Part shown: in pieces, positions 14,441 through 54,752 of the stretch
Layout of the letters: every line of letters begins with the position of its first letter
Numbering within the stretch: position 1 is the stretch's first letter
DNA from: Escherichia coli
GTDB taxonomy: Bacteria; Pseudomonadota; Gammaproteobacteria; Enterobacterales; Enterobacteriaceae
Length of the DNA: 64,000 nt
Direction: 5' to 3' (one strand)
Assembly: GCF_024298765.1 (NCBI RefSeq)
Contig: NZ_CP101210.1
Program-made: the position numbers and the translations under genes
Notes under the pieces: generated by a model
What the model was told of the DNA's origin: nothing
Seen by the model: only the letters and a program-made list of their open reading frames with translations
Databases searched by the model: none

Positions 14441-14624
14441 AAAAAAGCCCGCATCAGCGGGCTTTAATGTCATAGGGAGTCGCGACTCCGTTGCGTATCC
14501 TTTTTTGTCTCCTCACCGTCTGGTCGGTGTCCTGCTGAGACTTATAACTTCCTGTTTTTGTTGGTGTAGTCCTTACACCGTCCAATCATGATTGGTGGAG
14601 CTGGCGGGAGTTGAACCCGTGTCC
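14441..14624. repeat. Left att-associated direct repeat: displaced copy of the ssrA 3' end (~33 nt) plus ~150 bp of ssrA-downstream sequence
   Basis: ~90% identical by eye to 54238-54423; homology to ssrA stops at 14624, after which AT-rich prophage sequence begins. Confidence 0.7.
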
Positions 14625-15050
14625 ATAGTTATGTAATTCATTGAATTTAAATAGCCAAATATTGTTGATTTTACAAGCGGCTCTTTTGCGGAACTTTTTC
14701 TGTCCTGTTACTGTCTTACTATTTATTTTAAAATAGTTTCATTTGGAATTAATGGTTTGTGGTTGCAGTTTCGGAGATAGATAGCATTTTTTGCTAAAAA
14801 ATATTTTTATAAAAAATGTGTGTAAAAATGATGTTATGCACAGATTTATGCACAGAGGCTTTGTGATAAACCAGATTGTTTTGGATAAGTTTGTTTTTTT
14901 GTGATTTGTCAACAATATTATTGACTCTTGTTACTAAAGTGAGTGTTTTCTAAGGTGGTCAGAAGTTGTCCCTTCATGTAATCTTATTAGCCATAAAGAA
15001 CAAAAAATAATTCAACATCATTACCAACTATTTGTAAGATAAGGTTTTTA

Positions 15051-15866
15051 ATGTTGCAGCCAGCAAAAAAAGCATCAGTTATTAGCGCGCGGCTAACGAA
15101 ATACCTCAAAGATGGAGTGAGGATTGATGACTTTAGCTTTAGAAGGATGTTACGTGAGATTGAAGCACTTAGAGATCCTGTCTCTGAGGACTATCTTTTA
15201 GCGTTGGTCTATGGTGCACATGGCCAAGTGAATGAGGCGATAGGCTTCTTTGAGCGTTCCTTGCAGGTATGCCATAATGAGGTTGTTGCAAAGAATTTTC
15301 TTGTTTTCTTGTCAGATTACGGTACGTTGAAGAAAAGCTTTGAAACAAGCATTAAGCTTGCTGAAAGCTTCATATCCCCGTTTATTTATCTTCAAGCTTA
15401 TGAAAACTCCCTCTTTATGGGGAAGATGGCGTTGGCGGAGAAGTATTTCCAGTCATACTCTAAATTGTTCGGAGATAAGGAGCCTGAAAAAATGGACAAC
15501 AATCTTGATGAAGTTGTTTCCCAGGTCGAATCCTTTAAGCAACGTGCCGATCTTTCTGGTTTAGAATATGAACTTATTTTCAATAATGTAGCCAATGTCA
15601 TGGATTCTCAGAAGGTTCATCTTTCGGGAATGCGTTTTTATAATATTTCGGAAGAGAAAGTGAATGCGATTGTATTCATGACAAAGTCTTCTGATGCTGA
15701 ACAAATCGCTGATATGAATATTGAGCTTGCTTTTTCAATGGCTGAGCACGATTGTTTAGTCGGTAAAGATTTTGCTGTTTGGTTTGAATGTAAAGACACA
15801 CATATTGAGCAGAATGCTATCTCCGAATTAGGTCTGATTACCCGGAGGGTTGCACATGCCGGTTAA
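15051..15866 (+). CDS. Hypothetical protein (271 aa), first gene of a two-gene cargo operon beside attL/int; function unknown
   Basis: Clean ORF, soluble and helical-looking, no motif I recognise; AT-rich by eye; AT-rich upstream leader. Confidence 0.55.
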   Translation: MLQPAKKASVISARLTKYLKDGVRIDDFSFRRMLREIEALRDPVSEDYLLALVYGAHGQVNEAIGFFERSLQVCHNEVVAKNFLVFLSDYGTLKKSFETSIKLAESFISPFIYLQAYENSLFMGKMALAEKYFQSYSKLFGDKEPEKMDNNLDEVVSQVESFKQRADLSGLEYELIFNNVANVMDSQKVHLSGMRFYNISEEKVNAIVFMTKSSDAEQIADMNIELAFSMAEHDCLVGKDFAVWFECKDTHIEQNAISELGLITRRVAHAG

Positions 15867-16239
15867 TAGTCAAGATTTTCTCGGTTTTGCAAAAGACTGT
15901 CATCAACGTAATGACGAAATCGGCTATCGAAATGCTATAGCAAGATCCTACTATGGCGCTTACCATCATGTCTTGCCTTGTATGGTAAACGGGCCGAAAG
16001 ACAGTCATCAGGGGCTAATCAATTATTTGCAGGGCGATGCTTCAAGAGGAAGTGAAGTATATGAAGCTAGATATCTAAAAGGGATTAGTTTTATCCTGAG
16101 TCAACTTAAAGCTCAGAGGATTGTTGCAGACTATCGACTTGATCAATCGGTCACTTCTAAACAGTCTGAAGTTGCGATTCTAACAACTGAGAGGCTCTTT
16201 GCTAAGTGTACGGAAATGCTTAAATCGAGAGCCTCCTAA
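15850..16239 (+). CDS. Hypothetical protein (129 aa), overlaps upstream gene by 17 nt; contains an R-x6-H dyad (RSYYGAYHH)
   Basis: Overlapping start implies translational coupling; followed by a terminator hairpin at 16246-16270. Confidence 0.5.
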   Translation: MHMPVNSQDFLGFAKDCHQRNDEIGYRNAIARSYYGAYHHVLPCMVNGPKDSHQGLINYLQGDASRGSEVYEARYLKGISFILSQLKAQRIVADYRLDQSVTSKQSEVAILTTERLFAKCTEMLKSRAS

Positions 16240-16245
16240 TTGATA

Positions 16246-16270
16246 AAGCCACTTAAGTGGCTTTTTTTGT
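16246..16270. terminator. Hairpin plus T-run between the convergent cargo operon and int
   Basis: aaagccacttaagtggcttttttt. Confidence 0.6.
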
Positions 16271-17425
16271 GATATTGCTGGTCGTATTACCGTCATATTC
16301 CTTTAAATATAAACCATAATGACGAAATAACATTTCCGGCCCTTTATGCCCCATTTGAGCTGCAAGCCAAAACAGGTTTGCTCCCCGGCTGATATGGCGG
16401 GTGGCGAATGTATGCCTAGTTTGATATGGATTTCTGTAACGAATACCTGCTTTTCGCAATGTTGGCACCCATGCTTTTTTCCTGATTGCATCAGCACTTG
16501 CCCAAGGCTTATTGGTCTTTGGATCTTCAAAGACAGTAGTATCCTTCATGAATGTAAATGGCTTCTGATTTATCAGCGCCAACATTGCCTCTTCTGTCAG
16601 TTCAACTTTCCGAGTACCTGCTTTTGTCTTTGTCCCTTTGATAACACCGACAACACTTGCGCTCTGGACATGGGCAGTTTTTCCAACAAAGTCGATATCA
16701 CGCCATCGAAGGGCACATAATTCAGAACTACGCAGGCCTGTATGTATAGCGAACCGGAACAGATTTTCCCATTGTTTGTTTCCGGCTGCTGCTAGTAATG
16801 CATCAACTTCTGCTGGTGATAGCGGATCAACTACGTAGCTGCTTTCTGCTTCTGACTTATCACTTTGGTAGCGCGAAGCTGTTACTAACGATACGGGGTT
16901 AATTTGAAGTACCCCATCGGTCACGGCTTCATCAAGTGCTGACCGCAGGAAAGATAACTGGTTGCGAATTGTTTTTAAGGTCGTTTTCTGATTTTGAATC
17001 CACGCTTTCAGGGTTGCTGGTGTTAATTCACTTGCAGGGCAAATGTGAAGTGAGGCTAACGCACTACGGCATTTTTTATAGCCACCAATCGTAGAGGGTG
17101 AAAGTTTTCTTGTTTCGCAGATTTCAAGATATTCGTCCAGGTACATCTTTACCGTTTTGCCTGCAGCAGCATTACCAAAAATTTTCAAACGAGCAGAACG
17201 GGGAAAATATTCTGCATAAATGAATGTTCCCCTTTCGATCTTATTATGGATTTCGCCGAGTGTACGCTCGGCGTATTTAATGTTCTTTGGTGTTACTTCC
17301 AGATTGGAAAGCGGCTCACGACATCTAACTCCTTTGTAGGTGAAAGTTATATTGATCGTTTCTCCCTGGCGGTGTTTCCTGATTGTTACGCCGCGCGGTA
17401 GTTTGAGCAGTTTTGTCTGGCCCAT
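16253..17425 (-). CDS. int: Phage integrase, tyrosine recombinase family
   Basis: 390-aa ORF with C-terminal catalytic region (...HTGLRSSELCALRWRDID...RHTFATRHISRGANLFWLAAQMGH...); adjacent to xis and the att region. Confidence 0.85.
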   Translation of the reverse strand: MGQTKLLKLPRGVTIRKHRQGETINITFTYKGVRCREPLSNLEVTPKNIKYAERTLGEIHNKIERGTFIYAEYFPRSARLKIFGNAAAGKTVKMYLDEYLEICETRKLSPSTIGGYKKCRSALASLHICPASELTPATLKAWIQNQKTTLKTIRNQLSFLRSALDEAVTDGVLQINPVSLVTASRYQSDKSEAESSYVVDPLSPAEVDALLAAAGNKQWENLFRFAIHTGLRSSELCALRWRDIDFVGKTAHVQSASVVGVIKGTKTKAGTRKVELTEEAMLALINQKPFTFMKDTTVFEDPKTNKPWASADAIRKKAWVPTLRKAGIRYRNPYQTRHTFATRHISRGANLFWLAAQMGHKGPEMLFRHYGLYLKEYDGNTTSNITKKAT

Positions 17426-17631
17426 TTTGCAACCTCACTAAGATCAATCCACCTCTCCTTAACGCCTTCAACCTTTAAAACCTGAACACCTTCACGCCAA
17501 ACACCGCGCTGTACACGTTTGTTTATTGCTTCAGGAGTTTCGCCAGTTTCTTTGCAATAAGTTGAGATAGGAACACAATCGAGGTTCAGCATACGTTTCT
17601 CCATTATCCCGTCTGCACACGGGAGCAACAT
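17386..17631 (-). CDS. xis: Putative excisionase / small DNA-binding protein
   Basis: 81-aa basic ORF immediately upstream of and overlapping int by 40 nt, as in lambda xis-int; exact start uncertain. Confidence 0.5.
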   Translation of the reverse strand: MLLPCADGIMEKRMLNLDCVPISTYCKETGETPEAINKRVQRGVWREGVQVLKVEGVKERWIDLSEVAKWARQNCSNYRAA

Positions 17632-17633
17632 TA

Positions 17634-18524
17634 TTAACGAATAGTGTCGTTACTTTGAAGTACAGCAAATGCCATTAATACTTCTAAAGTATATCTTCTA
17701 TAAAATTTAACAAAACCAACATAGAAAACATAGACGAAGAAAAAGCTAAGCATTATTGAAAGTAAACTATAAAGATAATCACTATGAGTACATAATCGAT
17801 AAATAAAGGTTGGAACTGATACCCAAAATGAAATTATAAAGATTAAACATATGTTTCTGCAAAAACCATATAATGCAACATAGTTTTGAATTTTTGTTTG
17901 ATGTTGTTTTGAAAACTCATAAACATAATGATATGCCAATCTGAAGAGATCATCATCAAGTCCGTTTTTATCTTGTAATAATTGGCGATTTGTTATGAAC
18001 TTTTTCTCATAACCTTCTTTGATCATTAACCATGTTGTATTAGCTAAATGAAATGGTAGAGATTGAGAATAACATAGTTTTTGTGTTATAAAATCCCATA
18101 GTATTATTGGGCATAATACGCATTTGATTATGCGATTCTTTATTTTTGTTTTTTTATCAGCGCTTCTCTCATCGCATGATGGGCTACAAATGCTTTCTGA
18201 GGTATCTATCAATTTTTTAAATAGATATTTGGAAGGATATCCTAATTCTTTATTCATGTATTTTTCGATAAAAAATGCTGACGTGATAGAAATAAAATGT
18301 CCAGCTATATAAGATATAATAACTATTGAAGCGTAGTTCAAAATGCCAAAGATTTGACTTTGACCTCTGAGCAATTCACTTAAGTCAATAACAATATCTA
18401 GATCGAATGTCAAACCACAGAAATACATTAATAGGATAAAAAAACCACCTGGTATTAAATATCCAAGAAAGTCATAGAATGAGAATGGATTTTGATTCAT
18501 TGTTGCTCTCCAATAATTTTTCAA
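17634..18524 (-). CDS. Hypothetical integral membrane protein (296 aa; ~2 N-terminal and ~2 C-terminal TM helices around a soluble core)
   Basis: Strikingly AT-rich by eye compared with neighbours; hydrophobic stretches FFILLMYFCGLTF, IVIISYIAGHFISITSAFFI, ICLIFIISFWVSVPTFIY, LLSIMLSFFFVYVFYVGFV. Confidence 0.55.
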   Translation of the reverse strand: MKNYWRATMNQNPFSFYDFLGYLIPGGFFILLMYFCGLTFDLDIVIDLSELLRGQSQIFGILNYASIVIISYIAGHFISITSAFFIEKYMNKELGYPSKYLFKKLIDTSESICSPSCDERSADKKTKIKNRIIKCVLCPIILWDFITQKLCYSQSLPFHLANTTWLMIKEGYEKKFITNRQLLQDKNGLDDDLFRLAYHYVYEFSKQHQTKIQNYVALYGFCRNICLIFIISFWVSVPTFIYRLCTHSDYLYSLLSIMLSFFFVYVFYVGFVKFYRRYTLEVLMAFAVLQSNDTIR

Positions 18525-18608
18525 TTTGTAATATAACCTATATCTATATGTTAATAAATTACTTATATGTTCTTTTATGGCAGAGTTTGAATTCGTACGT
18601 GCTGATTT

Positions 18609-19145
18609 TTACGACTCAGTTAACTCTTTAAAGCGTTCCATAAACATCCCATAGGTATGGCCTGGCGACAGTGGAATAACTTTGAACATCTCTGTTGCCG
18701 GGATACCTTCCAGTACGGGCCAGAAAGAGCCATCATCAAGCCCGAGATCGCGGCGTTCGGTTGCCAGCATGATGAGATCGGCATATTTCACGGGCGTACT
18801 CATAACCGGGGGTAACCCGTATTTCTCACGGATTACGGCGTCTATTTTTTCTTCCATCCGTTTATAGTCAGGAAGAAGGCGTTTCAGTGGAGCCGGGATG
18901 TCCTGGCAATACGCTTCTGTTGCATCATGCATTAACGCTTCAAAAGCAAATTCCTGCGGTACCAGCTGGCTGCAAAGCACCGCATGTTGGGCGACGCTGT
19001 AGAAGTGTGAAAGATGGCCGGCAAAGCGACAGATATTTGAAAGGGAAACCGCGATATCGTTAATATCGATGTTGTCTTTATTTATCCTGTCATAATAAAA
19101 ATGTTTCCCGGAAAAAGTTTTAATAAATGACATTTTGTTCTCCAC
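18609..19145 (-). CDS. HD-domain phosphohydrolase, YfdR-like (putative 5'-deoxynucleotidase)
   Basis: 178-aa ORF with H...HD motif (ALMHDATEAY); same size and position as YfdR of prophage CPS-53. Confidence 0.65.
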   Translation of the reverse strand: MENKMSFIKTFSGKHFYYDRINKDNIDINDIAVSLSNICRFAGHLSHFYSVAQHAVLCSQLVPQEFAFEALMHDATEAYCQDIPAPLKRLLPDYKRMEEKIDAVIREKYGLPPVMSTPVKYADLIMLATERRDLGLDDGSFWPVLEGIPATEMFKVIPLSPGHTYGMFMERFKELTES

Positions 19146-54237: not shown

Positions 54238-54423
54238 AAAAAGCCCGCATAAGCGGGCTTTTGTGTCACTCGAGAGCCGCGGCTCCTTTGCGTATCCTTT
54301 TTTATCTCCTCACCGTCTGGTCGGTGTCCTGCTGAGACTGCTAACTTCCTGTTTTTGTTGGTGTTGTCCTTACACCGTCCAATCATGATTGGTGGAGCTG
54401 GCGGGAGTTGAACCCGCGTCCGA
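54238..54423. repeat. Right att-associated direct repeat (ssrA 3' end plus phage-borne downstream arm with terminator)
   Basis: ~90% identical by eye to 14441-14624; hairpin plus T-run (read on the minus strand) at 54238-54262. Confidence 0.7.
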
Positions 54424-54752
54424 AATTCCTACATCCTCGGTACTACATGCTTAGTCAGTCTTTACATTCGCTTGCCAGCTGCGGACGGACACGCCACTAA
54501 CAAACTAGCCTGATTAAGTTTTAACGCTTCAACCCCAGGCAGGGCTTCCACGCGATCTCTTTTGGGTTTGACCTCTCTTGATCCCCGTCCTAAGAGCGGA
54601 GGCTAGGGAGAGAGGGCTCTAAGCAGGTTATTAAGCTGCTAAAGCGTAGTTTTCGTCGTTTGCGACTATTTTTTGCGGCTTTTTACGAGGCCAACCGCCC
54701 CTCGGCATGCACCTTGGGTTTCGCAAATCCCGTCGAATCCAGAATCAGCCCC
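54390..54752 (-). ncRNA. ssrA: tmRNA (SsrA)
   Basis: Reverse complement matches the recalled E. coli tmRNA from GGGGCTGATTCTGGATTCGACGGG... to ...GGTTCAACTCCCGCCAGCTCCACCA. Confidence 0.95.

Follow-up and report, generated by a model that had tools for sequence, protein, structure and literature searches.

A mobile prophage gene of Escherichia coli encodes a predicted four-helix membrane protein distantly related to Csx27

Introduction

What does a solitary, AT-rich gene for a membrane protein do beside the integration genes of a lambdoid prophage? The question is raised by a 64,000-nucleotide stretch of the Escherichia coli contig NZ_CP101210.1 (assembly GCF_024298765.1), hereafter the window. 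Here a first-pass annotation had marked an open reading frame (ORF) at 17634..18524 on the minus strand, upstream of the excisionase gene xis, as encoding a separately acquired four-transmembrane (4-TM) protein, and had suggested a role in superinfection exclusion or abortive infection. Comparison with related prophages shows that the gene is horizontally mobile prophage cargo, occupying the final position of the early-left operon, next to xis-int on its 5' side. Profile comparisons show that its product is a distant, stand-alone member of the Csx27 superfamily. We tentatively read it, at somewhat less than even chances, as a membrane-level phage-exclusion factor in phage-phage or phage-host conflict.

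Among CRISPR accessory proteins, Csx27 has lacked an explanation since 2017; no structure of it is known, and the bacteria that naturally carry it resist manipulation. A longer, stand-alone branch carried on enterobacterial prophages would make the Csx27 question accessible to ordinary E. coli phage genetics.

Results

The gene and its swapped cassette

The AT-rich ORF exists and lies upstream of xis as claimed, and a spurious ORF was excluded. The ORF of the first-pass annotation stands, with a change of start: the TTG at 18524, which gave a 296-residue form, is almost certainly not the start codon, and the ATG at 18500 gives 288 residues. We place the gene at 17634-18500 because every homologue starts with the N-terminus M-(N/T)-Q-N-P-F-S, because positions 1-288 of the 288-position PHROG 12528 profile align to residues 9-296 of the long form, because RefSeq annotates an identical protein of 288 residues (WP_001075212.1), and because a GGAG ribosome-binding site (18511-18508) sits 7 nt 5' of this ATG. 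The gene is real and under purifying selection. The pairwise ratio of nonsynonymous to synonymous substitution rates (dN/dS) is 0.19-0.24 between intact enterobacterial alleles and below 0.5 in every region, and the analysis by region gave no sign of diversifying selection in the central domain. A further copy from IMG/VR (L251 6001-6865), a 72% 'allele' with a different C-terminus, gave saturated and erratic substitution values and was left out of the dN/dS comparison; it may be a frameshifted pseudogene, or its end coordinates may be off by one base.

The gene has a GC content of 28.5% (22% at third codon positions), against 43.9% for int, 46.7% for xis and 46.2% for the yfdR-like gene on its other side. 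In the windowed GC calculation that had been proposed as a check, it is the lowest of all 867-nt windows in the 64-kb sequence (z = -3.8). This bias is shared across the family, with the gene being AT-richer than its 12-kb flanks in 76 of 77 species-representative genomes from about 10 phyla (median difference -7.2 points).

The gene belongs, in the window, to a lambdoid prophage of about 39.8 kb, where it is placed between the yfdR-like gene and xis on the same strand, some 3 kb in from the int-proximal end. The prophage is inserted in ssrA and bounded by 51-bp repeats; the tmRNA lies at 54390-54752, a partial tmRNA match at 14593-14640 marks the duplicated attachment core, and the int end is the one far from the intact ssrA. 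In E. coli AVS0226 and in strain 3985 the prophages match yfdR and xis-int of the window at 96-98% nucleotide identity, but their slot is filled by two small genes unrelated to this one, from the unknown-function families PHROG 583 and PHROG 1226. Homology to these alternative-slot prophages breaks off with the stop codon of yfdR and picks up again about 10 nt past the stop of the gene. As near-identical prophages hold other genes in the slot, we conclude that the cassette has been swapped, and the comparison with these two strains bears out the earlier description of the gene as 'inserted'. Presence in some and absence from other close relatives, together with deviant GC, is one mark of a moron, a phage accessory unit as described by Hendrix, and the gene shows it; another mark would be a promoter and terminator of its own that permit expression from the repressed prophage.

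The cassette has also recombined internally. Another allele, 78% identical, is found very frequently in E. coli, Shigella, Salmonella and Citrobacter. Compared with this allele (locus L085), the window is 97-100% identical across yfdR, the spacer (itself 100%) and the opening ~150-200 nt of the gene. Identity then falls to 52-88%, and the downstream DNA is unrelated. The drop inside the gene indicates an intragenic recombination breakpoint after the first transmembrane helix (TM1), at about 18300-18360 of the window. Together with the cassette swap and the AT-richness in 76 of the 77 genomes, the breakpoint gives good support to a separate horizontal acquisition.

Relation to Csx27

Close homologues number 593, and a profile search of 1.8 billion representatives returned 1,093 clusters at 50% identity. 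Nearly all members are single-domain proteins of about 270-300 residues, spread over about 10 phyla. Pfam held no match for the protein or for 97 family members, and NCBIfam no family match beyond a sub-threshold one to Csx27. The best hit in a PDB sequence search had an E value of at least 1.2, a Foldseek search of the predicted model against the PDB found no solved fold relative (E at least 0.6), and matches in AFDB50 were exclusively uncharacterised family members. PHROG 12528 is itself categorised as 'unknown function'. Homology to a housekeeping membrane enzyme or transporter had been named as an outcome that would speak against an exclusion role; no such likeness was found across Pfam, NCBIfam, PDB sequences and Foldseek.

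The lead came from PADLOC, where the Csx27 model was the best match for the window protein (E 1.4e-5) and for nine of ten diverse members, the first residues of the proteins mostly aligning to model positions 3-4. The PADLOC matches were limited to Csx27, tm_4 (associated with type VI-B) and the candidate PDC-M48A, all of them weak. To test the lead, metagenome contigs were scanned with a type VI-B direct-repeat pattern. The scan found many 36-nt/30-nt arrays and retrieved at least 120 DNA stretches, the large majority clear arrays and a minority a single match. When the hidden Markov model of the family was run against all ORFs of the VI-B loci, seven of the eight top matches were small ORFs adjoining Cas13b-sized ORFs. 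The five Cas13b-adjacent ORFs that were checked are genuine Csx27 (108-209 bits, with an NCBIfam NF040557 cutoff of 65), and of their large neighbours two were scanned, both proving to be true Cas13b (673 and 833 bits, NCBIfam cutoff 150). Aligning the family to these Csx27 proteins with hhalign gave a probability of 97.2% (E 3.8e-11), and at a greedier setting the alignment was collinear end to end, matching family positions 7-283 to Csx27 positions 2-212 over 208 columns. Three motifs are shared. At the N-terminus NPFSxYDFLGYLxPG of the branch corresponds to KFSLYDFxSFxLPG of Csx27; at the start of TM3 AYHYxYExSxxHQxKIQNYVALYGFCRN corresponds to AYYYLEYHDKITTAKAFQSMYFFLRN; and after TM4 KFYRR corresponds to RWYRK. 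Among the VI-B loci (L094-L173) only some Cas13b genes had an adjacent Csx27, and several loci (L094, L144 and L146) held truncated Csx27-like ORFs of 111-166 residues without the N-terminal two helices.

The window protein scored 14.9 bits against NF040557, over its N-terminal 40 residues only and below the cutoff of 65, and beside its gene there is no cas13b or VI-B CRISPR array, the neighbours being the yfdR-like gene and xis-int. We rejected an assignment to Csx27 proper on this score and the lack of Cas13b nearby. Nor was a large HEPN protein seen among the conserved neighbours of the 77 genome loci. The profile alignments instead make it a distant member of the Csx27 superfamily that stands alone.

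In E. coli, Csx27 acts as a repressor of interference by Cas13b, even by a heterologous Cas13b, and at the time of that study it was not found outside VI-B loci (Smargon 2016, bioRxiv 10.1101/092577). A later survey is reported to describe an 'expansive Csx27 family' of four-TM proteins linked to competence and natural transformation, to multidomain proteins of the ubiquitin system and to WYL-HTH proteins, and including a DNA-modification subfamily (Makarova, Gao, Zhang and Koonin 2019, FEMS Microbiol Lett 366:fnz088; hereafter Makarova 2019); as summarised in PMC7642515 and PMC11662929, the family was predicted to form a single-stranded DNA (ssDNA) channel. This raised the question of whether our protein could be a conduit for DNA or RNA, a membrane channel controlling nucleic-acid traffic in the manner of the ssDNA uptake or degradation predicted by Makarova 2019 in those summaries. 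Superfamily membership and the summarised prediction would both favour such a channel. Against it, neither the competence nor the ubiquitin-system (ubiquitin-fusion) nor the WYL-HTH associations were found around the branch at any of the 77 genome loci, with Pfam run on 263 flanking ORFs, and a four-helix monomer would need to oligomerise to form a channel. We regard a conduit as very unlikely.

Topology and conserved residues

Kyte-Doolittle hydropathy gave four hydrophobic segments, at residues 10-41, 48-78, 207-238 and 241-267. An AlphaFold2 model built on 97 diverse homologues is all-helical (predicted local distance difference test score 90, predicted template modelling score 0.89), with long helices at 8-31, 51-86, 198-237 and 243-283 and a helical domain at about 87-197 between them. 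The four-TM call rests on these two lines. Counts of lysine and arginine across the family follow the positive-inside rule, with the central domain and the C-terminus cytoplasmic and two short loops outside. The protein is thus predicted to be a four-TM protein of the inner membrane with both termini inside and a helical cytoplasmic domain of about 110 residues between TM2 and TM3. The arrangement of two plus two helices in the first-pass annotation was essentially right, while the soluble core is slightly shorter than the ~130 residues it gave. That core had also been called Cys-containing; C104, C108, C126, C129 and C142 are present, but none is conserved in the family, so we give them no functional weight.

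Other residues are strikingly constant. In the alignment of 97 sequences, at about 30% identity, 14 columns are invariant (F6, D10, G13, Y14, P17, Y64, G67, S74, E79, H191, H200, G212, R215 and K265), and a further 22 are at least 90% conserved, including H68, E195, K203, N206 and E273. The predicted topology and the secondary-structure model would place the conserved polar residues at the cytoplasmic face of the membrane or close to it. An invariant set of Asp, His, Ser, Glu, His, His, Lys and Arg could also belong to a membrane enzyme, for example a metal-dependent hydrolase or transferase acting on lipid or envelope in the manner of serotype conversion, and a related idea is orphan immunity to a membrane-targeting toxin. 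Slots next to int often carry envelope-modifying genes, and three of the Bacteroides/Prevotella copies, in the operons of loci L055, L064 and L077, lie inside capsule/glycosyltransferase loci. However, the conserved residues would probably face the cytoplasm, the histidines are missing in Csx27 and no toxin gene is linked, and we consider an enzyme or immunity function highly improbable.

Recurrent phage slots and the P2 hotspot

The family is carried on prophages of E. coli, Salmonella, Klebsiella and Enterobacter, the allele group of the window being present in 204 of 5,426 complete E. coli genomes. Its position recurs: about 34 of 58 full-length IMG/VR viral loci have the gene right in front of xis and int, in the same orientation. 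These slots adjoin integrases of at least five size classes, and their members share 48-100% protein identity. Klebsiella phage P7641 and an Enterobacter prophage next to uvrC have the gene in the same slot.

A second slot is found in P2-like phages, where a 43%-identical full-length copy (280 residues, PHROG 12528, with the same invariant residues) lies between gpQ (portal) and gpA. This interval is the P2 old/tin defence hotspot (Rousset 2022, PMC9122126), for which Table S5B of that study lists a system #3, 'DUF4760; 1 TM in protein 1, 4 TM in protein 2', with 1,102 occurrences. Protein 2 of system #3 in that table is exactly the family member of the P2 phages, and the system is the third most common cassette of the hotspot. 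In the P2-like loci (L002 4470-5849 and L252-L258) a 165-residue single-TM protein, confirmed by Pfam as DUF4760, is in every case encoded 40 nt upstream of the family member. By tblastn this partner occurs at P2-like loci only, and at neither the window nor the other loci. Another protein of the hotspot, about system #34 in Table S5B, is a 160-residue four-TM protein (MDGLWEKISSYNIFNNLFPGALF...) with a weak in-register N-terminal match to the Csx27 profile (11 bits), and its N-terminal motif is also present in the PADLOC candidate PDC-M48A. Phage hotspots may hold several short proteins of the Csx27 type.

A constant place in the early-left (pL) operon would also suit a gene that serves the phage life cycle or host takeover, its product, made from the pL transcript upon induction or infection, altering the physiology of the host membrane for the phage and doing nothing for the lysogen. 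Lysis timing, a block of division or exclusion of secondary infection during the lytic cycle alone would be examples. The gene is tightly packed between yfdR and xis-int on the same strand; a consensus scan of the 108-nt spacer upstream found no promoter, where by eye there are weak sigma-70-like hexamers, and the promoter/terminator scan found no terminator after the gene. The same operon position is moreover kept across several lambdoid backbones. Against such a role stand the near-identical prophages that lack the gene, the family members in the P2 hotspot and in Prevotella defence islands, and the solitary copies on the chromosomes of about 10 phyla, and we think it unlikely.

Contexts outside lambdoid and P2 phages

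Outside recognisable prophages, chromosomes across about 10 phyla widely carry a family member on its own, and clustering of the neighbours at the 77 genome loci found no conserved family-wide neighbour. A Bacteroides/Prevotella subfamily forms a three-gene operon of a 92-residue protein, a PIN_8 protein (PF18476) of about 320 residues and the membrane protein. The 92-residue protein is weakly Cas2-like (PDB 7mi4, E 0.034; Pfam Cas2 in three of five members, E <= 0.1). In two Prevotella contigs (L081 and L082) the operon comes directly after SIR2-HerA, and in L082 a Hachiman-like helicase follows. The copy of the membrane gene in L077 is broken into two parts. The Pfam families found in the 263 nearest and next-nearest neighbours were PIN_8 (7), phage integrase (3), N6_Mtase (3), Eco57I (3), ResIII (2-3), N6_N4_Mtase (2), Methylase_S (2) and OLD-TOPRIM with AAA_15 (2). 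As raw counts, these neighbours have a mobile-element and defence flavour.

The operons raise the possibility that the protein is a membrane tether or brake for a soluble partner, be it a nuclease, an immune protein or a phage protein, as Csx27 is for Cas13b; for a phage, the effect could be anti-defence, or protection of itself against systems of the host or of the prophage. The homology to Csx27, whose sole measured activity is repression of Cas13b, heterologous Cas13b included, points in this direction, as do the branch members in operons with PIN_8 and Cas2-like proteins or with DUF4760, and the conserved polar set, which is probably at the cytoplasmic face, fits a docking site. On the other hand, the window and most genomes lack a conserved partner gene, E. 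coli has no Cas13b, and the family-invariant His and Glu are absent from Csx27, so that the branch may act differently. A tether or brake is in our view quite unlikely.

Features of the window and related loci

The coordinates are collected in Table 1. The stem-loop just upstream of xis is kept in prophages that lack the gene and thus belongs to the backbone and not to the cassette. It was ruled out as an intrinsic terminator, having no T-run, and might serve in regulating or processing the xis-int transcript. Scans of the surroundings of the gene against Rfam and for repeats gave nothing relevant to the gene.

Table 1. Coordinates of features in the window (first eight rows) and of the three-gene operons in other loci.
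Feature	Position	Strand	Remarks
4-TM protein gene, 288 residues	17634..18500	(-)	ATG 18500; stop TAA 17636-17634; long (~280 residues) branch of the Csx27 superfamily
Upstream spacer, AT-rich, 108 nt	18501..18608	(-)	contains the ribosome-binding site; travels with the cassette
Swapped cassette extent	17624..18608	(-)	alignment with alternative-slot prophage L083; two-piece matches H28-H30
Stem-loop CCCGT-GTGCAG-ACGGG, 5-bp stem, 6-nt loop	17608..17623	(-)	just upstream of xis
Excisionase xis	17386..17631	(-)	PHROG 2917, E 8e-45; RefSeq; directly downstream of the gene; true start probably internal to this ORF
Tyrosine integrase	16253..17425	(-)	PHROG 1 integrase, E 3e-63; RefSeq
yfdR-like HD-domain 5'-deoxynucleotidase	18609..19145	(-)	PHROG 318, E 6e-108; RefSeq; last early-left backbone gene upstream of the cassette
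Attachment-site repeat, 51 bp, exact	14569..14619, partner 54366..54416	.	duplicate of the ssrA 3' end
Three-gene operon	L055 2716-4842
Three-gene operon	L064 427-2541
Three-gene operon	L068 335-2436
Three-gene operon	L077 6766-8965
Three-gene operon	L081 3595-5878
Three-gene operon	L082 2989-5272

A second AT-rich (~40% GC) cargo pair lies at 15051-16239 on the plus strand, between int and the attachment repeat, its two genes overlapping by 17 nt. The 271-residue protein belongs to PHROG 17809 (unknown function) and has faint TPR hints. The 129-residue protein (PHROG 5176) contains an R-x4-H-type HEPN-like motif, RNAIARSYYGAYH, and has a weak PADLOC HEPN_IX match (E 0.0014). The two genes, in the other classic moron slot, may form a toxin-antitoxin or a defence pair.

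Discussion

We tentatively favour a stand-alone conflict factor that would act at the cytoplasmic membrane and exclude competing phages. The polar set of D10, H68, S74, E79, H191, E195, H200, K203, N206, R215, K265 and E273 may form a binding site for a ligand, an ion or a partner, and this putative site would control the helix bundle. One possible outcome is that incoming phage DNA is blocked at the inner membrane, giving superinfection exclusion; another is a triggered ion leak or depolarisation that aborts infection, as with membrane effectors elsewhere. Some lineages add a soluble or single-TM partner, namely DUF4760 in P2-like phages and PIN_8 with the Cas2-like protein in Bacteroidota, and in VI-B1 loci the short form, Csx27, goes with Cas13b. 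For the superinfection-exclusion or abortive-infection idea of the first-pass annotation the support we find is circumstantial, coming from cassette #3 of the P2 hotspot, from the SIR2-HerA and Hachiman neighbours in Prevotella and from the homology to Csx27. As background, the membrane proteins of defence systems mostly act as effectors (Rousset 2022, PMC9122126), and the Csx28 pore is an example of a membrane effector (bioRxiv 10.1101/2021.11.02.466367).

Several points weigh against exclusion. The gene belongs to an operon in the pL direction, lacks a terminator and any convincing promoter of its own, and may be expressed in lytic growth only and not in the lysogen. Both the P2 hotspot and the int-proximal slots hold non-defence cargo too, and the apparent enrichment of defence neighbours consists of raw counts. 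A lone four-TM protein would need to sense infection unaided. No significant match was found to a validated defence system in PADLOC-DB v2, and DUF4760 does not appear in the tables of tested systems of Rousset 2022, in which the cassette is catalogued. The sole published phenotype of Csx27 is repression of Cas13b and not defence, and fusions of Csx27 to red fluorescent protein (RFP) showed no membrane localisation in E. coli (Smargon 2016, bioRxiv 10.1101/092577). Our literature searches, by accession, for 'Csx27-like' and for DUF4760 in a defence context, returned nothing useful, and the literature searched yields no experiment on any member of the branch.

A bolder form of the idea is that the proteins of about 280 residues are an autonomous single-gene membrane immune module of unsolved fold, of which Csx27 is a shortened, recruited copy. 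We hold this to be possible but doubtful. If it is true, the gene would be the first genetically tractable model for the Csx27 superfamily at the membrane, and the family a new, widespread defence family missing from catalogues of the PADLOC and DefenseFinder type and from Pfam.

Csx27-family four-TM proteins are already known, as is prophage cargo at int-proximal and P2-hotspot slots. What appears new is the long, stand-alone, His-bearing branch with its phage contexts, neither named nor modelled in the literature and databases searched, although the family of Makarova 2019 may already include it. This is a sizeable uncharacterised family carried on mobile elements, with more than 1,000 clusters in about 10 phyla, no Pfam or NCBIfam family and strikingly invariant polar residues. 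The cassette ranked third by frequency in the P2 defence hotspot now has an identity, and should the protein turn out to serve in defence or exclusion, it would account for a so far unlabelled cassette of a hotspot that is among the best studied of its kind.

Comparison with known systems

P22 SieA, HK97 gp15 and T4 Imm are, like our protein, phage-encoded proteins of the inner membrane, and a block of genome entry is one mechanism proposed here; they show no homology to it, and are smaller and narrowly distributed, against about 10 phyla for our family. Csx28 (VI-B2), RexB, Cap15 and the TM effectors of Pycsar are small helical membrane proteins that change permeability, and RexB has in addition four TM helices and a prophage origin, making a functional analogy possible. 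These effectors depend on sensors (Cas13b, RexA or a cyclic-nucleotide synthase), whereas the window gene is solitary, and we detected no similarity in sequence or fold to Csx28-type or other membrane effectors. SNIPE, a membrane nuclease (Nature 2026), was set apart as unrelated by its description in outline.

With Csx27 (NF040557; PADLOC PDLC01605) the branch shares the four TM helices in a two plus two arrangement, full-length collinear homology and three motifs in the same order, with the consensus (P/K)FSxYDFxxxxxPG, AY(H/Y)YxxE...K.xQ(N/S)xYxxxxFxRN and (K/R)(F/W)YR(R/K). Csx27 lacks about 70 residues of the cytoplasmic domain of the branch and the branch-invariant E79, H191 (Tyr in Csx27) and H200 (Thr), H68 being only partly kept, and the branch is also found in prophages of Proteobacteria besides Bacteroidota. 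The family of Makarova 2019, as reported, is similar in its four predicted TM helices, its detectable homology to Csx27 and its occurrence outside CRISPR loci, and differs in context, which for our branch is the prophage xis-int slot, the P2 hotspot and the operons with PIN_8 and Cas2-like proteins. System #3 of the P2 hotspot differs in having the single-TM DUF4760 partner and in lying in the gpA-gpQ slot of a P2-like phage, where the window has a yfdR-like gene upstream. Its protein 2 is a member of the family at 43% identity, and like our gene it is mobile cargo, in a slot rich in validated anti-phage systems.

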